From the NCBI GenBank assembly GCA_001794125.1, contig MGJF01000004.1, positions 1-61,102 on the forward strand: 61,102 nucleotides of DNA, given 5' to 3'. The notes below the pieces were generated by a model that was not told where the DNA came from, ran no database searches, and was given only the letters and a program-made list of their open reading frames with translations. Shown one piece after another: positions 1,512 through 56,896 of the stretch. The stretch's first letter is position 1, and every line of letters begins with the position of its first letter. The DNA comes from Candidatus Yanofskybacteria bacterium RIFCSPHIGHO2_01_FULL_43_32. Lineage in GTDB: Bacteria > Patescibacteriota > Minisyncoccia > 2-02-FULL-40-12 > GWA2-44-9. A program made the translations under genes and the position numbers.

Positions 1512-2610
1512 ACAAGGGCTGACGAAAAAACATCTTATAAGAGCCCTCTTTAAGGAAATTGACCTTCCTTTGTTTGCCGCGGTAGCGGCTGTTTCTTTGT
1601 TCAGTGTTCTGAATATGTACGGCATTAACGGATTCGGACCGCTTTTCAAGAAACAGATAATTTTTGTGGCTATAGGAATGGCGGTGATGATATCGTTTTC
1701 TTTTTTTAATTACCGTTATTTGAAAAACTATTCCTTTCCTGTTCTGTTCTTTTATTTTGTGTCGATTATTCTTCTGCTTTTAACTTTTTATTCCCGTTCG
1801 GTCAGGGGGGTAAATGCCTGGATAGTTCTCGGTCAATTCACTTTTGAGCCGGCTGAATTGGCGAAGCTGATGCTTATCGTCCTTATGGCAAAATATTTTT
1901 CCCAGAGGCATGTTCACATCAATCAATTCAGGCATGTGTTGGTTGCCGGTATTTATTATGGTATCCCTGTTTTAATAATTTTGGCTCAGCCCGACCTGGG
2001 TTCGGCCATAATTTTTTCTTTAATATGGATAAGCATTCTTGCCGCTGTAGGCATCAACAAGAAACACTTTTTTCTTTTGGTCATTTTGGCCGTGATTGTT
2101 TCTTACAGTTCGTGGATTTTTGTTTTAAAGCCATATCAGAAAGACAGACTCCTCACTTTTGTGAATCCCGGTGGTGATCCAAGAGGAAGCGGATATAATT
2201 TGATTCAATCCAAAATTGCCATCGGTTCCGGCTACTGGTTCGGAAACGGCTTGGGGAAGGGTTCACAAACAACATTGGGATTTTTACCGGAATCCCACAA
2301 TGACTTTGTTTTTGCCGCCACAGCCGAGCAATTCGGTTTTGTCGGAGCTGGTTTGGTGGTAGCTGCGATTTTATTTATTGTGTATAGAATATTGAGCGTA
2401 GGAAGGGCGGTTGTTTCTAATTTCGGTAAAATATTTTCAATCGGAATGGCGGTATTTATTTTTGCCCACGCCCTCATTGGCGCTTCCGTGAATATCGGTC
2501 TGATGCCGGTGACGGGAATTCCATTTCCGTTTCTAAGTTACGGAGGAAGCTACCTCATTTCTATTATGAGCGGGTTGGGTATTTTGCAGAGTATTAAAAG
2601 GTATGGATAG
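1477..2610 (+). CDS. rodA: rod shape-determining SEDS protein (RodA/FtsW family)
   Basis: multi-TM; motifs FEPAELAK, QPDLGSA, GYNLIQSKIAIGSG, LPESHNDF, PFLSYGGS; exact start uncertain. Confidence 0.9.
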   Translation: MALKKSFRNSIRQGLTKKHLIRALFKEIDLPLFAAVAAVSLFSVLNMYGINGFGPLFKKQIIFVAIGMAVMISFSFFNYRYLKNYSFPVLFFYFVSIILLLLTFYSRSVRGVNAWIVLGQFTFEPAELAKLMLIVLMAKYFSQRHVHINQFRHVLVAGIYYGIPVLIILAQPDLGSAIIFSLIWISILAAVGINKKHFFLLVILAVIVSYSSWIFVLKPYQKDRLLTFVNPGGDPRGSGYNLIQSKIAIGSGYWFGNGLGKGSQTTLGFLPESHNDFVFAATAEQFGFVGAGLVVAAILFIVYRILSVGRAVVSNFGKIFSIGMAVFIFAHALIGASVNIGLMPVTGIPFPFLSYGGSYLISIMSGLGILQSIKRYG

Positions 2611-2625
2611 TCGCTCCCGCCATCT

Positions 2626-2771
2626 GAATAGTTCACATAACCTCCATGCATGACTGCGGGGTGCACTTTTTTAAAATATTACTAATTTTAAAAAAGCACA
2701 CGCCCTCCGCCGGTTGCTTAGTATGCAGCTTACACTTGGCAATAAAGGGTCAAACTATTCTGAAATAAAGT
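2626..2771 (+). repeat. long-hairpin element E, copy 1
   Basis: gaatagttcac-a-aacc...AT-rich-loop hairpin...ccggttg...tggcaat...caaact; 6 copies in window. Confidence 0.85.
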
Positions 2772-2825
2772 GCTATCTGAGCTGTTGATTTTATGAGGAA
2801 ATGGTGGAATAATCAAAAACATTAA

Positions 2826-3227
2826 ATGACGATAAACCCCATTGCACAAGCGATTGTTGATTGGACGAGGCTCAAAATAAAGCTTCATTTTTCAGACCGT
2901 GTTATCTATTTTAAGGAAAAACAAATTTGGTGGATAGCTATCGGACAGAATATTGGAGATGAACAGAATGGAAAGAATTCTAACTTTGAAAGGCCAGTTC
3001 TGGTACTAAAGAAATTTAACATGAATATGTTTTTGGGTGTCCCTATTTCTACTAAGATTAAAGACGACCAATATAAACATATCTTTACCAATAATGGCAC
3101 TCAATTCTCCGCAAATTTATCTCAAATTCGAGTTTTTAGTAGCAAAAGACTTTTACGCAAAGTTGGAGTTATGGAAAATTCTGATTTTGAACAAGTGAAA
3201 GAGGTGCTTAATAGTGGGATAAAATAA
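2826..3227 (+). CDS. PemK/MazF-family endoribonuclease toxin (orphan)
   Basis: IWWIAIGQNIGDEQNGK...RPVLVLKK...GVPIST...QIRVFSSKRL, typical PemK-like motifs; no adjacent antitoxin ORF. Confidence 0.85.
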   Translation: MTINPIAQAIVDWTRLKIKLHFSDRVIYFKEKQIWWIAIGQNIGDEQNGKNSNFERPVLVLKKFNMNMFLGVPISTKIKDDQYKHIFTNNGTQFSANLSQIRVFSSKRLLRKVGVMENSDFEQVKEVLNSGIK

Positions 3228-3279
3228 CGGCTCCCCCTTGCGGGGGAGCCTCGGAACCCTATTTCCAGGGTCAAAATGT
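3221..3279 (-). ncRNA. candidate small RNA convergent on pemK-like gene
   Basis: minus-strand TTGACT(3310-3315)-N18-TATACT(3286-3291) promoter, 5-bp hairpin, then GGCTCCCCC-GCAA-GGGGGAGCC hairpin plus T-rich tail. Confidence 0.55.
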
Positions 3280-3417
3280 ATTTAGAGTATAGCATGTCAA
3301 GCGGTCGGTAGTCAATAGTTATCAACAATTCGTCAAAGTGACATAAAAGCAATGGGACTACGATTTTGACTCTGCCCATCTTTAGATATATAATCATGAA
3401 AAAGATTTAACGTTTTT

Positions 3418-4104
3418 ATGAAATTAAATATTAAAGAACTACTCGATTTTCTTGATGATAAGAAAGATTCCCAAATGGGTGATGCCAATGCCATAATTGC
3501 TGTTCTCGGTGAGGATTTAAACGCTTCTGCATATAAACATTTTAGAGGAGGTAAGGTAGAAATTCTTAATGATTCAGTTCTTCCCGGTACTAATAAGGGT
3601 AAAAGATTAGATCGATGGATATTAGATAAGACTAATAATAATTTATTTCAATGTGAGATTAAGAATTGGGCAGCAACCGCCATTGGAGGTAAGTCATTGA
3701 AATCTGATGCAAGTATTGAAGAAACTAAAAAGATTGTTGAATATTACTGGAAACGCGAATTAAATAACAACCTTTCAAGCAAGGGGGAACACCCAAATGG
3801 TGTTACCAAGGTATTGCTTAAAATGAAACTACCTGACAAGCACAGTAAAATAAAGGTTCAACCGCTACTTATCTATTGGATGCCAATTTCTTCAGATATA
3901 GACGGGTTACATCCATTATCTGTTGTTTCTGTAAAATCACTTCATTTACCAATGGTGACTGAATTTTCAAAACTTTATGTTTTTTCTGTGTCCCTATACC
4001 TTCGCCAGTTGTATAAAAACGGGAAGGGGCAAAAACTTATTGACATAGACACACCACATTTTGAACATAGAATTAAAATATTAAATAAATTGGGGGATAA
4101 ATAA
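3418..4104 (+). CDS. putative PD-(D/E)XK nuclease-like protein
   Basis: RLDRWI...FQCEIKNW resembles the D...E-x-K catalytic motif; own TTGACT-N17-TATAAT promoter. Confidence 0.5.
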   Translation: MKLNIKELLDFLDDKKDSQMGDANAIIAVLGEDLNASAYKHFRGGKVEILNDSVLPGTNKGKRLDRWILDKTNNNLFQCEIKNWAATAIGGKSLKSDASIEETKKIVEYYWKRELNNNLSSKGEHPNGVTKVLLKMKLPDKHSKIKVQPLLIYWMPISSDIDGLHPLSVVSVKSLHLPMVTEFSKLYVFSVSLYLRQLYKNGKGQKLIDIDTPHFEHRIKILNKLGDK

Positions 4105-22805: not shown

Positions 22806-23813
22806 ATGTCAGCCAAGAAACCGGCAACAACCGAAAACAAGCACGTCGATATGACAGTCAAAGAGATTCAGGAGAAGTATGGCGAAGGGTCTTTAATGCG
22901 TTTGGGTGAGGTAAAGAGGGTCAATGTGGACGTAATTCCGACAGGTTCTATTTCTTTAGACTTAGCCTTAGGAGTAGGTGGAATACCAAGAGGCAGAGTT
23001 ATAGAAATATACGGTCCTGAAAGTTCCGGTAAGACAACCCTTTGTTTGCATATTGTTGCCGAAGCCCAAAAAAGGGGCGGAGTCGCCGCATACATTGACG
23101 CTGAACACGCTCTGGATCCTGAATATGCCAAGAAGATAGGGGTTAATTTGGGAAACCTTTTGATATCCCAACCGGATACTGGCGAACAGGCGTTAGATAT
23201 AGTAGAGTCATTGGTTAAATCAGGAGGTATAGATGTTATCGTGATTGATTCAGTGGCGGCACTGACCCCGAGAGCGGAAATAGAGGGGGAGATGGACCAG
23301 CAGCATATGGGTTTGCAAGCAAGGTTGATGTCTCACGCTTTGAGAAAACTTACCGCTATTGTTGCCAAGTCCAATACCTCAATAATTTTTATTAACCAAT
23401 TAAGAATGAAGATTGGAATCATGTTTGGAAATCCCGAGACGACTCCGGGCGGAATGGCTTTGAAATTTTATTCTTCCGTCAGAATTGAAATTAGAAAAGC
23501 CGCCCAGATACAGGCTGCCGAAAAGATAGTGGGGAACAGGGTTAAGGTGAAAATAGTTAAGAACAAAATTGCCCCTCCGTTCAGAACTTGCGAGTTTGAT
23601 ATCCTGTATAACGAAGGCATCTCGCGATATTCCGATGTCGTGAATACCGGAGTTAAATTTGGTGTTCTTGCCAAAGCAGGCAGCTGGTATAATTATGGCG
23701 AGCAAAAATTAGGCCAAGGCGTAGAGGGCTCGCGGCAATTTCTCAAAGAAAATCCAAAGCTTGAAAAGGAGATAGTGGGCAAGATTAAAGAAGCAGCAAT
23801 ATTAGAAGCTTAG
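22806..23813 (+). CDS. recA: recombinase RecA
   Basis: [31 protein letters not shown]. Confidence 0.99.
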
Positions 23814-23818
23814 AGCTT

Positions 23819-23880
23819 GCCCCGCACCAAACTTATCCGCTAACCGCCATTAAGAAAGGGGGCGGGTTTGGTGCGGGGTC
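23819..23880. repeat. ~63-bp CCCCGCACCAA...TTGGTGCGGGG hairpin element, copy 1
   Basis: homologous to 27621-27685 and 38268-38330. Confidence 0.85.
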
Positions 23881-23927
23881 ACTAAAATTAAGGCCGCAGC
23901 AGTACTTGAAGCGAAGGGTTAAGCGAA

Positions 23928-24379
23928 CCCCCACCCATTTCCGACCTGTTGGATTACGGCCTCCGGCCTTCTTCGGACAAATGCTTAAATTAACTCTCAA
24001 TTTGCTTAACAAATTTTAGCATCCGTTTGCCCCGCCTAAATTTTACCTTATAAAACTTAGGCGGGTTTTCCGGCTAAAATTTGTTGACTAAGCAAATTAT
24101 CAACTAATTTAATCATTGTGTTATCCTCGAAACCAATCGGTCTGAAATGGGCAGGGGTTTCGCTATTTTTTAAAGCGAGGGACATATGCCCTCAGAGAAC
24201 GACCCGCAGATGCTTGGGCTTGGTTCTTCCAAGCGCCGAGGGAGAAGAAAGATTTGCCGCTGGAGCAAATCTATTCTGGTTCGAGGAAGGCATGTGGCCT
24301 TCGCAGTTTTTAAATCAAGCGAAATCCCTTCCCATTTGAGACCGAAGGCGCAGGCAATAGGTCGTAAATGGGTGGGTGG
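23928..24379. ncRNA. candidate large structured element with possible pseudoknot
   Basis: closing stem 23928-23950/24356-24379 plus several long internal stems; no credible ORF. Confidence 0.5.
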
Positions 24380-24400
24380 AAGCTATGTTTTAAGGCGGGG

Positions 24401-24429
24401 TTGACATTTTGGTTTTAGGAGAGTATAAT
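24401..24429 (+). promoter_or_regulatory. consensus sigma70 promoter
   Basis: TTGACA-N17-TATAAT exact. Confidence 0.85.
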
Positions 24430-24590
24430 GATAAAGTACCTGGCCAAGGCTTACCGCATAAAGGCGTGGCTGGGTTTGTAATCAACAAAGGGGTAGTTGG
24501 TGCGGCTGCTACCGCCGTTACCGCCGGGCCAATAATTAGGCGGAAAGGATAAGACCGCTCTCCTTAAGAAGCGGTCACTCTGGAGGTCCC

Positions 24591-24692
24591 ATGAAGACAG
24601 TTGTCGTCAGTGGTCAGGTTTACACCGGCAAAACTCTGGCCGAAGCCATGACCAAGGCTCGGGAAGACCAGAAGGACAGGAACACCCGGTAA
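24591..24692 (+). CDS. 33-aa small ORF MKTVVVSGQVYTGKTLAEAMTKAREDQKDRNTR
   Basis: GGAGG 4 nt before ATG; below the ORF-track cutoff. Confidence 0.45.
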   Translation: MKTVVVSGQVYTGKTLAEAMTKAREDQKDRNTR

Positions 24693-24902
24693 GGGTCAGG
24701 CCGAGTGGCCAGGCCGAGTTGTTAACTCGGTCTCTCTAAACTAACTTCTGAAAAAATTCAGAACTTAATTTAGCGAGGCCTGGGGTGTCCCTTACCTTTC
24801 CGAAAGGTGAGGGACTATGGTCGGGAAAATCTGCCGGGCGGTAATCCTGCCGCTCGGGTGGCTCCCGGTCATTCTCCTGCTCCAGCCTCGCTCCGTTTCT
24901 CG

Positions 24903-24927
24903 AGACCCCTTGACTGGGGTCTTTTTT
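24903..24927 (+). terminator. intrinsic terminator
   Basis: agacccc-ttgact-ggggtct plus T-run. Confidence 0.8.
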
Positions 24928-25017
24928 AATTAAAATGATAAAGCGAAAGCTATGTTCCCACAGGGAGAACTTGCGGAGGCATTTCGGCTTGGTTCTGCGA
25001 AATGCCGAGCATGTAGA

Positions 25018-25046
25018 TAAAAAGCGCCCGCTGGAGGCGCTTTATT
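25018..25046. terminator. bidirectional terminator downstream of rpsR
   Basis: aaaaagcgcc-cgctgga-ggcgcttt. Confidence 0.7.
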
Positions 25047-25079
25047 ATCGGTCGAGTCGTGGGGATATAGCTTGAGCGA

Positions 25080-25289
25080 TTATTTAACCGTCTGATTCCG
25101 GGTATACGGCATGATGGCCATGAACCTTGCGAGTTTGACCGCTTCGGCTATTTTGCGCTGGTGCTTGTTGCAAAGCTGATTTCTCCGGCTTGTGGCAATC
25201 TTAAACTGGGAAGTGACATACTTCCTTAAAAATTGAGTGTTCTTATAGTCCACTCTGTTTATATTGTCTTGGCAAAATTTACATTCCAT
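25080..25289 (-). CDS. rpsR: 30S ribosomal protein S18
   Basis: VDYKNTQFLRKYVT...CNKHQRKIAEAVKLARFMAIMPY. Confidence 0.95.
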   Translation of the reverse strand: MECKFCQDNINRVDYKNTQFLRKYVTSQFKIATSRRNQLCNKHQRKIAEAVKLARFMAIMPYTRNQTVK

Positions 25290-25291
25290 AT

Positions 25292-25807
25292 TTAAAACGG
25301 TAAATCTTTTTCTTTAATACTCATTTCGTCCTCGTCAACCCCAGAATGCATCGGTTCGTTCTCGTCTATGATTGGTATCTCGGCATCTTTAACAGGTGAC
25401 GGAGAAGAACTTCGTCCTGAGCCTGTCGAAGGATTTTTAATGTCAGTTACTTCGGCAGAATAATTACTCTGTCCGCCTGTTGCCTTCGGTCCCATCTGCA
25501 AACTCTCGGCGACTATCTCGGTAACATATCTTTTGACATTATCTTTTCCGGTCCAGTTTCTTGTCTGAAGACGGCCCTCTATCATGACCAAACCGCCTTT
25601 TCTCAAATACTGGCTGGCAATCTCTCCCAACCGGCTCCAGGCGATTACGGTGTGGTATTCGGTGGCATCTTTTCTGCCTCCGGAAGGATCTTTCCAGACC
25701 CTGTTTGTGGCCATTCTCAAGGTAGTAACGCTTTGACCGCTTGTGGTTGACCTCGTTTCCGGGTCTTGGGTTAATCTTCCAATGAGGTAAACTTTATTTA
25801 GATTCAT
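25292..25807 (-). CDS. ssb: single-stranded DNA-binding protein
   Basis: NKVYLIGRLTQDPE, EGRLQTRNW, C-terminal DLPF. Confidence 0.97.
   Translation of the reverse strand: MNLNKVYLIGRLTQDPETRSTTSGQSVTTLRMATNRVWKDPSGGRKDATEYHTVIAWSRLGEIASQYLRKGGLVMIEGRLQTRNWTGKDNVKRYVTEIVAESLQMGPKATGGQSNYSAEVTDIKNPSTGSGRSSSPSPVKDAEIPIIDENEPMHSGVDEDEMSIKEKDLPF
25410..25432 (-). repeat. in-frame CCTTCGACAGGCTCAGG element in ssb (encodes PSTGSG)
   Basis: same family as the rpoC, groEL and 54658 copies. Confidence 0.75.
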
Positions 25808-25821
25808 ATTGTTTTATTTAA

Positions 25822-26268
25822 TTACAACCCCTCAATGATTTCTTCAAGTTTTTTGTCCAATTCTTTCGACTCTTTTTTGGGTTCTGCCGGAGCGGAAGCC
25901 TTGGCCTGGGCTCTTTTTTCCTGTCTTTCTCTCATCTTAATCTGTTTTAACATGGACTGTTTCTTTTGTAAATCCGAAGGCAGTTTGATTATCAGATATC
26001 TCAATACTTCGGGATTTAATTTAAGCTGTTCATTTAATTCGTCTAAGGCCTGGGATTCCGACAAATTAAACTGGATATAACCAAAAAAACTGTTTCCGTG
26101 ATGTTTTATCTCGTAAGATAAGCGTATTTTTTCGGGTTCTTTAGAATAAGAAATAACACCCTTATTGGAGGTTATAATGCTTTCTATTTTTTCTTTTGCT
26201 TCCCTGACTTTGGCTTCTTCCAGATTTGGATTTAAATGAAAGGCCAGCTCGTAATTTGTCTGTTGCAC
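25822..26268 (-). CDS. rpsF: 30S ribosomal protein S6
   Basis: YELAFHLNP...LSYEIKH..FGYIQF...NPEVLRYLII; rpsF-ssb-rpsR order. Confidence 0.93.
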   Translation of the reverse strand: MQQTNYELAFHLNPNLEEAKVREAKEKIESIITSNKGVISYSKEPEKIRLSYEIKHHGNSFFGYIQFNLSESQALDELNEQLKLNPEVLRYLIIKLPSDLQKKQSMLKQIKMRERQEKRAQAKASAPAEPKKESKELDKKLEEIIEGL

Positions 26269-27620: not shown

Positions 27621-27685
27621 CCCCGGCACCAAGCTAATCCGCTGACCGCCATTAAGAAAAGGGGCGGGCTTGGTGCGGGGCAGGC
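27621..27685. repeat. 63-bp hairpin element, copy 2
   Basis: ccccggcaccaagc...gcttggtgcgggg. Confidence 0.85.
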
Positions 27686-37879: not shown

Positions 37880-38917
37880 TTATTCTAATCCCATCTTTTC
37901 TTTTACTTCTTTTAGTGTAGAACCGGCTAATGCTTTAGCTTTTTCTTCGGATTTTATTAAAATAGACATAACGTAGTCAGGATTTTTCTTGAGTTCGTTA
38001 TATTTTTCCTGAAACGGTTTCAAAAAGCCCACAACAACTTCGGCGAGGTCGTTCTTGAAGTCCGCATATGATTTGCCTTCGTATTCGGCTTCAATGTTTT
38101 TTATCTCTTTTCCCGAGAGCATGTGGAAGATGGTGATAAGATTTGAGATTGCCGGCTTTTCTTCCTCGTTGTAGTAAACTTCTTTTCCGGAGTCGGTGAC
38201 GGCTTTTTTAATTTTTAACCTAATCTCATTTGGAGTATCAACTAGAAAAATACAACTATCGTCTCCGGCCTGCCCCGCACCAAGCCCGTCCCCTTTGCTG
38301 GCGGTCAGCGGATCAGCTTGGTGCGGGGTCTTGGACATTTTTTTGCCCGGATCCTGGAGGGACATTATTCTGGCACCTTCAGTCAGTTTTGCTTTGACCG
38401 GTTCAAATGTCTGGCCGAACATGGAATTAAATTTTTTGGCAATCTCGTTGGCTAAGTCGATGTGGGGCATCTGATCTTCTCCGACAGGAACAAGATTGGA
38501 TTTATAAATTAAAATATCGGCGGCCATTAAAACGGGATAATCTAAAAGCCCCATGTGGTTGTACTTGGGGGATTTGGCGAGCTGTTCTTTATGGGTAGGC
38601 AGGCGATCCAGCCAGCTCACCGGTGTAATCGTATTAAATATCCAAGCGAGTTCCGTATGCTGGGAGACTTTTGACTGGCGGATAAGGAGTGCTTTGTCGG
38701 GGTCAACTCCGGCGGCTAAATAATCCAAAACTACGTCCATGACTTGCCCGCGGTATTTCTTTGGGTCAAAAGGGGTAGTAATGCCGTGGTAGTCCACAAC
38801 GGCAAAAATTGCCTGGTCGGTTTTGTCCTGAAGTTCAATCCAGTTTTTGATGGCTCCGAGGTAGTTGCCGAGATGCAATTTTCCCGACGGTCTTATGCCA
38901 GAAAACACTTTGGTCAT
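37880..38917 (-). CDS. trpS: tryptophan--tRNA ligase with in-frame palindromic insertion
   Basis: SGIRPSGKLHLGNY, VPVGEDQ, KKMSK; start chosen at MTKVF. Confidence 0.96.
   Translation of the reverse strand: MTKVFSGIRPSGKLHLGNYLGAIKNWIELQDKTDQAIFAVVDYHGITTPFDPKKYRGQVMDVVLDYLAAGVDPDKALLIRQSKVSQHTELAWIFNTITPVSWLDRLPTHKEQLAKSPKYNHMGLLDYPVLMAADILIYKSNLVPVGEDQMPHIDLANEIAKKFNSMFGQTFEPVKAKLTEGARIMSLQDPGKKMSKTPHQADPLTASKGDGLGAGQAGDDSCIFLVDTPNEIRLKIKKAVTDSGKEVYYNEEEKPAISNLITIFHMLSGKEIKNIEAEYEGKSYADFKNDLAEVVVGFLKPFQEKYNELKKNPDYVMSILIKSEEKAKALAGSTLKEVKEKMGLE
38268..38330 (-). repeat. 63-bp hairpin element, copy 3, in frame in trpS
   Basis: encodes TPHQADPLTASKGDGLGAGQA directly after KKMSK. Confidence 0.85.
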
Positions 38918-41345: not shown

Positions 41346-41438
41346 AACCGCTTTAAAGAGACACGATTATCAATCAGTTAATACGATTAAATGACTAAAT
41401 AGATCATGACTTACTATGAGTATTGGTTTTTACTAATG

Positions 41439-41522
41439 TGGGCGAGGGGAGATTTGAACTCCCACGAGCTTGCGCTCATAGCGCTCTGAACGCTACATGT
41501 CTGCCAGTTTCATCACTCGCCC
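41439..41522 (-). tRNA. tRNA-Leu(CAG)
   Basis: GGGCGAG/CTCGCCC acceptor, TAGCG-TTCAGAG-CGCTA anticodon arm, long variable arm, TTCAAAT T-loop; CCA not encoded. Confidence 0.95.
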
Positions 41523-56595: not shown

Positions 56596-56891
56596 CCCGC
56601 CGTTGGGAAGCCCTATTATTTTTAGCATGCACTTCGTATACATTTTAAGACTTAGCAATGACCAACTATACATCGGTTTTACTCGAGATTTGAAAAAGCG
56701 CTTAAAGGAACATGAATCTGGAAAAGTATTTACTACAAAGAAGTATTTACCGCTCGAATTGATATACTATGAGTGTTATAGCGCCTTTCTTGATGCTAAA
56801 AACAGAGAGTCTAAAATCAAGCAATTTGGCAGTACTTACTCTCAACTAAAGAAACGCATAATCCATAGTATTGGGGCTTCCCAACGGCGGG
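56596..56891. mobile_element. 296-bp element with CCCGCCGTTG TIRs and GTTGAC target duplication carrying a GIY-YIG gene
   Basis: 20-bp perfect IR (56594-56613 / 56874-56893); GTTGAC at 56590-56595 and 56892-56897. Confidence 0.8.
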
Positions 56892-56896
56892 GTTGA
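56627..56896 (+). CDS. stand-alone GIY-YIG nuclease
   Basis: FVYIL...LYIGFTRDLKKRLKEH...ELIYYE..AKNRESKIK. Confidence 0.92.
   Translation: MHFVYILRLSNDQLYIGFTRDLKKRLKEHESGKVFTTKKYLPLELIYYECYSAFLDAKNRESKIKQFGSTYSQLKKRIIHSIGASQRRG

Follow-up and report, generated by a model that had tools for sequence, protein, structure and literature searches.

A probable structured mRNA for a conserved micro-protein between recA and rpsR in Candidatus Yanofskybacteria

We analysed a stretch of 61,102 nucleotides (nt) of contig MGJF01000004.1 (assembly GCA_001794125.1; hereafter the window) from Candidatus Yanofskybacteria bacterium RIFCSPHIGHO2_01_FULL_43_32, and focus here on a transcription unit located between recA and the rpsR-ssb-rpsF operon. 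Comparison with related genomes suggests that this unit is probably a monocistronic, heavily structured mRNA, which encodes a conserved and lineage-restricted micro-protein of ~30 residues and carries conserved cis-acting RNA structure. In kind, it is a small-protein gene with cis-regulatory RNA; the mRNA is probably regulated or attenuated, and possibly a dual-function transcript. Judged by alignment, at least six Yanofskybacteria lineages share, at the orthologous recA-rpsR locus, the promoter, the leader, the open reading frame (ORF), a hairpin after the stop codon (the post-stop hairpin) and a further RNA module (module Y), all in conserved form. The micro-protein is confined to a small group of Yanofskybacteria (Parcubacteria), and both the protein and the RNA modules are outside any described family.

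The initial annotation of this locus had left the choice between an abundant novel non-coding RNA, a dual-function RNA and a switch controlling a micropeptide. Among these, the readings that include a coding function are favoured because the position and the amino-acid sequence of the ORF are conserved, with a pattern of synonymous substitutions, and a structured RNA with a switch has some support because the conserved, covarying structure includes two mutually exclusive helices; the purely non-coding reading is not supported. Bacteria of the candidate phyla radiation (CPR) have tiny genomes with little intergenic DNA, and to our knowledge almost nothing is known of gene regulation in them; the 0.5 kb kept here between recA and a ribosomal-protein operon offers a concrete and testable example of lineage-specific riboregulation. 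The features of the unit are as follows.

24401–24429, + strand: sigma-70-type promoter, TTGACA (24401–24406), 17 nt, TATAAT (24424–24429); 12/12 consensus matches
24438–24475, + strand: 5' hairpin, then UUUGUAAU; from the minimum free energy (MFE) fold; window-specific, no blastn match in relatives
24521–24543, + strand: leader hairpin L1 (CCGCC...GGCGG); from alignment and RNAalifold
24553–24576, + strand: leader hairpin L2, a covarying stem with the loop CUCUCCUUAAGAA; from alignment and RNAalifold
24582–24586, + strand: Shine-Dalgarno (SD) sequence GGAGG, 4 nt before the ATG
24591–24692, + strand: micro-protein ORF of 33 codons, ATG at 24591, stop codon at 24690–24692; from homologous ORFs at the same position and a codon test
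24712–24732, + strand: conserved post-stop hairpin, GGCCGAGTTGTTAACTCGGTC; from alignment of relatives
24728–24743, + strand: module Y strand a, pairs with strand b
24766–24784, + strand: module Y strand b (TAATTTCGCGAGGCTGG), common to helices a:b and b:c
24785–24879, + strand: module Y inner domain of the 'W' type, two nested hairpins inside helix b:c; from RNAalifold on the window and locus L208
24880–24901, + strand: module Y strand c, pairs with strand b
24902–24928, + strand: intrinsic terminator, an 8-bp GC-rich stem (24902–24923) followed by TTTTTT

Conservation of the unit at the recA-rpsR locus

The unit was found in relatives at the same chromosomal position (loci are denoted by L and a number). 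A first set of searches made it look like an orphan: no blastn or nhmmer match to the recA-rpsR intergenic region was found in 80 loci of GTDB species representatives, which were located via RecA. The window RecA is 81–83% identical to those of two GTDB representatives (L001 and L004, the nearest ones), which have an unrelated ORF of 91–97 residues between recA and rpsR, and 96% identical to the RecA of Yanofskybacteria GW2011_GWA1_39_13 (NCBI name). The orphan status was overturned by contigs encoding RecA proteins 91–97% identical to that of the window, reached via the protein database. The orthologous recA-rpsR gaps of L197, L200, L205, L208 and L209 have blastn matches to the unit that are patchy but clear and in the same order (the L197 gap is identical in L198, L199 and L204, and the L200 gap is identical in L202). 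What these diverged copies have in common is the promoter, a leader with two hairpins, a positionally equivalent ORF, and module Y as well as the post-stop hairpin.

With nhmmer, a profile built on the leader matches the orthologous loci only (E-values from 1e-10 to 1e-25; 1.4 Mb of sequence searched). The unit has no blastn match (distant mode) in phages or plasmids, and neither the 31-mer of its promoter nor the three-way-junction element that flanks it (see below) has a match in viral contig scans. In the DNA sequencing runs that contain the unit, its sequence is invariant at the depth of the organism.

The promoter is kept in L197, L200, L205, L208 and L209, with hexamers that are perfect or one-off and a 17-nt spacer, and GGAGTATAAT is a further conserved element of the promoter region in these relatives. 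An exact TTGACA-17-TATAAT occurs once in the 61 kb window, with a chance expectation of 0.05. Near-consensus sigma-70 promoters, often with GGGG before them, precede ordinary protein genes in these genomes, and strong consensus promoters seem to be the norm; a perfect promoter is therefore no mark of an RNA gene. For example, a promoter at 56886–56920, upstream of an ORF starting at 56950, has GGCGGGGTTGACAT in common with the promoter of the unit.

The gene that follows the unit is the convergent rpsR in the window and in most relatives; L209 differs, as rpsR is not directly next. There (1780–3678), the unit is followed by ~700 nt of more GC-rich non-coding sequence and then by a same-strand gene of the DIT1/PvcA family.

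The micro-protein

The ORF of the window encodes a peptide of 33 residues (MKTVVVSGQVYTGKTLAEAMTKAREDQKDRNTR, of which MKTVVVSGQVYTGK... is a segment). Related short peptides are listed below.

P0125, a close variant of the window peptide: MIIVVNGQVYSGKTLAEAMTKAREDQKDRSTR
L209, same position: MVTIVVNSKVYSGHTLAEAWRKARQDQNDR
L208, same position: MVQKIIIGGKTYFSQDGVVLTKKEAKEAGLK
L200, same position: MTLIIIDGIVFSSWKDALEYKAGK

A codon test was applied to the window and L209, the single pair close enough for it. Between the two, 33 of 90 nt differ and 19 of 30 residues are identical (63% amino-acid identity at 63% nucleotide identity); 13 codons have synonymous changes only, compared with 11 that have non-synonymous ones, and the differences are distributed 10/5/18 over codon positions 1/2/3. 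None of 20000 random mutation sets of equal size (0/20000) reached the observed identity (19/30) without a stop codon, and in the other two frames the sequences have just 7–8 residues in common.

Longer forms of the protein are found in one lineage. In the L197 group (identical in L198, L199 and L204), the same leader is followed by an N-extended ORF of 65 residues (1992–2189), and P0126-8 are variants of this form with 67–71 residues and the common core RRLFVVGGLVVGSRRDDALEVKA. The core of P0126-8 and L197 aligns to the short forms, with the invariant pattern VV.G.V...KA..D...R. The C-terminal half of the 65–71-residue form is the micro-protein core, and the N-terminal half has a conserved segment of its own (QPADWLxDPLPKGYQRPVERR). 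A profile search with the core (1.4 Mb) recovers all the copies (E-values from 4e-11 to 6e-18) and nothing else. These comparisons show a predicted conserved protein of 24–33 residues, with an N-extended form of 65–71 residues in one lineage and purifying selection on its amino acids. Standard annotation misses this small protein or leaves it unnamed, and a perfect promoter-to-terminator structured RNA should not be called non-coding before its relatives have been checked.

It is unlikely that the unit is instead a pure non-coding RNA with an incidental ORF that is kept through RNA structure alone. Such a reading would fit the very stable fold (z = -5.98, see below), the conserved RNA modules on either side of the ORF and a contig of run X17 that is without the ORF segment, but it does not fit the bias toward third-position and synonymous changes, nor an amino-acid identity as high as the nucleotide identity; in addition, an ORF with an SD sequence is found at the same place in five lineages, the N-extended paralogous form has the same core, and at the nucleotide level no part of the unit is less conserved than the ORF (blastn against the relatives).

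The peptide is hydrophilic, with a net charge of about +3 and no membrane helix. An AlphaFold2 model of the 71-residue form, built from a 5-sequence alignment, has low confidence (predicted local distance difference test, pLDDT, of 54); in this model the core is predicted to be a hydrophobic beta-hairpin followed by a charged helix. No significant match to the micro-protein was obtained from Pfam, NCBIfam, PHROGs, PADLOC or PDB sequences, and the best sub-threshold matches have E-values of 0.063 (a dsRBD fragment, PDB) and 0.16 (a PHROG). The former, the best PDB match (the ADAR2 dsRBD, 2l3j), covers beta-3/alpha-2 of the double-stranded RNA-binding domain, with which the peptide shares a hydrophobic strand, G, x, x, an aromatic residue, ..., and (S/T)KKxAK(E)xA; the pattern is clearest in the L208 peptide (IIIGGKTYF...TKKEAKEAG). 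However, the match is not significant, spans one third of the domain and is accompanied by no Pfam match, so that we take the resemblance as a lead for possible RNA binding and not as family membership.

We also considered a type I toxin–antitoxin or other small-toxin locus, which would likewise have a small ORF in a structured mRNA, with a ribosome-binding site that is possibly occluded. This is highly improbable: the peptide is hydrophilic, about +3 and without a membrane helix, no strong minus-strand (antisense) promoter is found within the unit, and there is no PADLOC match.

Leader and ribosome-binding site

The region between the promoter and the ORF ends with two conserved hairpins. Hairpin L1 is directly followed by a conserved purine tract (GAAAGGA, 24543–24549), and its stem is replaced by TCGAC/GTCGA in L205. 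Hairpin L2 has a pyrimidine-rich, conserved and anti-SD-like loop, which is near-invariant across relatives as UCUCCUUAAG. Both-sided changes are seen in 5 of the 15 base pairs of the leader.

The SD sequence is found at the same place in relatives, as GGAGG, GGGGG or GAGGA. In the window, L200, L208, L209 and L197, an SD-like tract lies 4–7 nt 5' of the ATG, after the same leader hairpin; in L205 the ATG is present and the SD is absent. That the L2 loop mimics an anti-SD sequence and occludes the SD is a weak hypothesis, to which we return below.

Post-stop hairpin and module Y

Immediately 3' of the stop codon, relatives share a hairpin of the form GGCCGAGTTGTTAACTCGGYC, with GGG/CCC instead of GAG/CTC in L200. 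In the window, a 13-nt tandem duplication (24694–24719, GGTCAGGCCGAGT / GGCCAGGCCGAGT) repeats the 5' arm of this hairpin; it is absent from the relatives.

Module Y consists of three strands (a, b and c), of which the middle one can pair with either of the other two. Nine copies were collected, and in all 9 copies both duplexes are favourable (−10 to −26 kcal/mol for a:b and −20 to −28 kcal/mol for b:c). For helix a:b, 89.6% of the alignment cells are paired, compared with at most 50% in slid controls, and 8 of 15 pairs have both-sided changes, with a covariation score reached by none of the shuffles (0/500). For helix b:c, 74.6% of the cells are paired (at most 48% in slid controls) and 4 of 14 pairs have both-sided changes, with a covariation score that was reached by 0 of 500 shuffles; since the alignment contains no gaps and there are indels in four of the copies, the b:c figure is too low. 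The comparison thus shows that module Y has two predicted, mutually exclusive helices that share strand b, each kept by compensatory changes. Between the 3' domains of the window and L208, all the stem substitutions preserve pairing, and one hairpin is replaced outright.

The position and the content of the module vary. Relatives carry a copy of Y between the promoter and the ORF, where the window has a plain hairpin (24438–24475) with a U-rich tail. Given its position and this tail, the hairpin may be what remains, in reduced form, of the upstream copy. The sole full copy in the window is downstream of the ORF and has a weak U tract; in relatives, TCTTTT(N)ATAA comes after strand c. L197 has no downstream Y, and its post-stop hairpin leads directly into a T-rich tail. 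The inner domains are unrelated among the copies, with at least 5 types within the conserved a/b/c frame: for example, the 'G' domain is found in the first copy (Y1) of L208 and in the second copy (Y2) of L209, and the 'W' domain is in Y2 of both the window and L208. Neither module Y nor the post-stop hairpin occurs outside this locus in the 1.4 Mb searched.

Extent and fold of the transcript

The transcription start is predicted near 24436. The resulting 492-nt RNA has an MFE of −214.5 kcal/mol, compared with −176.1 ± 6.4 kcal/mol for shuffled sequences (z = −5.98), and its MFE structure in dot-bracket form has about 12 hairpin loops. All the elements that the initial annotation had named are present: the exact TTGACA-N17-TATAAT (12/12 positions, 24401–24429), the hairpins (at least seven had been counted), the GGAGG-led ORF of 33 residues at 24591–24692 (with the SD at 24582–24586) and the clean terminator, with its 8-bp stem at 24902–24923 and TTTTTT. 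Its proposal of alternative folds for the 5' segment stands in part. The segment ACCTGGCCA (24438–24446) is indeed complementary to both 24611–24619 (9 bp, one of them G-U) and 24706–24713 (8 bp), but the segment is not conserved; the long-range alternative pairing is unsupported because the 5' segment is window-specific and absent from the relatives.

The unit had also been described as lacking the hallmarks of RNase P, tmRNA and signal recognition particle RNA, which agrees with Rfam and ARAGORN. A match to a known Rfam family, which the annotation itself had named as evidence that would count against it, was searched for and none was found: in a scan of the window with Rfam 15, the only match at the gathering score is one tRNA elsewhere; at E <= 10 the unit has only miRNA and CRISPR-repeat noise and no known family; and the relatives have no match at E <= 1. 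ARAGORN found no tRNA or tmRNA in the unit.

Two other ORFs in the unit were rejected as genes. The ORF of 47 residues at 24409–24552 overlaps the promoter, and the ORF of 40 residues at 24807–24929 is broken in L208 by indels of 1 nt and 13 nt.

Proposed mechanism and points against it

In the favoured reading as an mRNA for the micro-protein, the transcript would run from about 24436 to the terminator at 24902–24928. Module Y could be a conformational switch, in which helix a:b would form first in the course of transcription; helix b:c would then close the inner domain and, with the U tract that follows it in relatives, could terminate transcription. The upstream Y of the relatives may thus attenuate transcription ahead of the coding region, with the copy of the window presumably reduced to a plain hairpin. 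Hairpin L2 with its conserved loop would most likely serve as a docking or binding site through which translation of the micro-protein is tuned. Candidate effectors are the ribosome, the micro-protein, which is mildly basic, or some other factor; autoregulation by the peptide is a testable guess.

Several observations weigh against this reading. A HMMER search with the 33-residue peptide against 1.84 billion representative proteins found no homolog at E <= 0.001 except the peptide itself. A contig of run X17 joins 24577 to 24711 and skips 133 nt, which correspond exactly to the SD and the ORF together with the first of the two 13-nt repeats; this joint may reflect an assembly artefact or an allele without the ORF, and if the allele is real, there are strains that lack the protein. 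With only some six lineages and nine copies of Y available, several of them orthologous, the covariation statistics draw on few independent events. As to control of translation, duplexes between the L2 loop and the SD have energies of −4.6 to −7.7 kcal/mol, which are no better than those of shuffled loops (shuffled-loop fraction 0.09–0.54), and pairing of the loop with either the SD or the upstream purine tract is not above that of shuffled loops; L205, which is without the SD, also counts against the anti-SD idea for the leader loop. As to control of transcription, helix b:c encloses a domain of 60–100 nt, which is unusual for an intrinsic terminator, and in the window it has a weak U tract and is directly followed by a canonical terminator. 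Three metatranscriptomes of one groundwater study gave no coverage anywhere in 23700–25400, recA and rpsR included, and are thus uninformative.

A more ambitious picture, which we regard as doubtful, is that of an undescribed RNA–protein system of Parcubacteria: the protein of ~30 residues, with a beta-hairpin and a helix, would bind its own transcript, and module Y would be a scaffold for exchangeable structured RNA domains that move between positions and genomes, making a modular riboregulator or ribonucleoprotein unlike any described so far. The region and the three-way-junction element that flanks the unit would then jointly mark a set of uncatalogued, CPR-specific structured RNAs.

Comparison with known systems

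SgrS/SgrT, RNAIII/delta-haemolysin and SR1/SR1P are dual-function or coding small RNAs. The unit is like them in that a transcript of a few hundred nt has a dedicated promoter and terminator, is extensively structured and contains a single SD-led ORF in the range of 25–45 codons; unlike them, its modules look cis-acting (alternative helices and U tracts), and there is no sequence or Rfam relationship. It is nevertheless possible, if clearly not the reading we prefer, that the unit is a dual-function RNA as well, in which the micro-protein is made and pieces of Y or of the leader, intact or processed, have an additional role in trans, as small RNAs or a protein sponge, with the swappable inner domains as specificity parts. 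The conserved a/b/c frame, with at least 5 unrelated inner domains at differing positions among genomes, would suit such a role, every Y ends in a U tract as a stand-alone small RNA would, and the window Y is downstream of the ORF and cannot control its transcription; on the other hand, module Y is found at this locus only (1.4 Mb). A dual function would add to the coding reading and not replace it.

Attenuators and riboswitch expression platforms are antiterminator/terminator pairs. Module Y resembles them in its three segments, of which the middle one pairs with either neighbour, with both helices kept by compensatory change, and in the U tract after the 3' helix and the Y copy between promoter and ORF that are found in relatives. 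It differs in that the would-be terminator helix encloses a structured domain of 60–100 nt, which is wholly different among copies. Compared with riboswitch platforms, no conserved core of the ligand type was found in module Y, and the only full copy in the window is downstream of the ORF.

Leader peptides of the trpL type are also similar, with a short ORF upstream of alternative hairpins, whereas the peptide sequence of the unit is under selection, has no regulatory codon runs and is mostly not followed by a same-strand gene. A reading of the unit as ribosome-mediated attenuation, with the ORF acting only as a sensor that sets the fold of module Y for a downstream gene, is quite unlikely for similar reasons. 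The order of elements (a short ORF, then a hairpin, then alternative helices ending in a U tract) would allow it, and L209 does have a same-strand DIT1/PvcA-family gene about 700 nt downstream; but the unit is followed by the convergent rpsR in the window and in most of the relatives, what is conserved is the sequence of the peptide and not a regulatory codon run, and strand a begins about 36 nt past the stop codon, out of reach of a terminating ribosome. Among all these comparisons, we continue to favour the structured mRNA of a conserved micro-protein.

Neighbouring genes and dispersed elements

The unit lies in a region of 1.27 kb without long ORFs (23814–25079), which is shared with several dispersed elements. 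The genes and elements around the unit are as follows.

22806–23813, + strand: recA
23926–24157: long hairpin repeat of ~230 nt, with partial extra arms at 24308–24345 and 24355–24376
24160–24309 and 24930–25085, + strand: three-way-junction RNA element of ~115–150 nt, two direct copies flanking the unit
24941–24946 and 25074–25078: AGCGA-motif flanks of the three-way-junction element (window example)
25080–26268, − strand: rpsR-ssb-rpsF operon, convergent to the unit

The three-way-junction element is also found in L086, L094, L096, L105, L111, L116 and L127 and in about 40 other loci; it has high depth in groundwater metagenomes, and dozens of true copies came from a metagenome scan. Individual contigs carry multiple copies, in either orientation, and no neighbouring gene is constant. 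RNAalifold on 38 copies found compensatory changes in 23 of 30 pairs, and all three stems vary; the loop GGCUUGGUUC is invariant, as are the loop CCGCUGGAG and a GCCGAG segment, and the strand is fixed by numerous G-U pairs. We found no Rfam match to this element at E <= 10. With at most one mismatch, AGCGA is found as a direct motif 5' of the element in 28 of the 38 copies and 3' of it in 22, and 18 copies have it at both ends, reminiscent of a target-site duplication or of a preferred site of insertion. The element has the appearance of a structured RNA of Parcubacteria that is not yet catalogued and may be mobile. Being multi-copy, widespread in groundwater Parcubacteria, strongly covarying and not in Rfam, it may be the more general discovery.

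An AGCGA-like sequence (AAGGCGG, 24392–24398) is found just before the promoter of the unit. The idea that the unit is cargo of the flanking repeats, bounded by such AGCGA-like motifs, was rejected: L197 and L200 carry the unit without an adjacent match to the flanking element in the recA-rpsR gap.

Related copies of the long hairpin repeat are found in L096, L105, L151, L182 and L208, often directly upstream of the three-way-junction element. In L105, the right end of this repeat carries an outward promoter that is homologous to that of the unit and drives a different gene. One could imagine the unit as a non-functional mosaic, i.e. a decaying remnant of genes and repeat elements whose accidental transcription starts at the outward-facing promoter of one such hairpin repeat, in a region packed with dispersed repeats where more distant Yanofskybacteria (L001 and L004) have the unrelated ORF of 91–97 residues. 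We consider this very unlikely, as order and content are conserved across lineages whose RecA proteins are 91–97% identical, the ORF is under selection and the helices show compensatory changes.

A hairpin after recA (23820–23878, with perfect arms of 13 bp) recurs at 27622–27680 and 38273–38328 with 83–90% identity, and appears to be a repeated terminator-like palindrome. Elsewhere in the window, ARAGORN predicts a tRNA-Leu (CAG) at 41438–41522 on the − strand, and the Rfam scan at the gathering score lists only the tRNA at 60862–60948.

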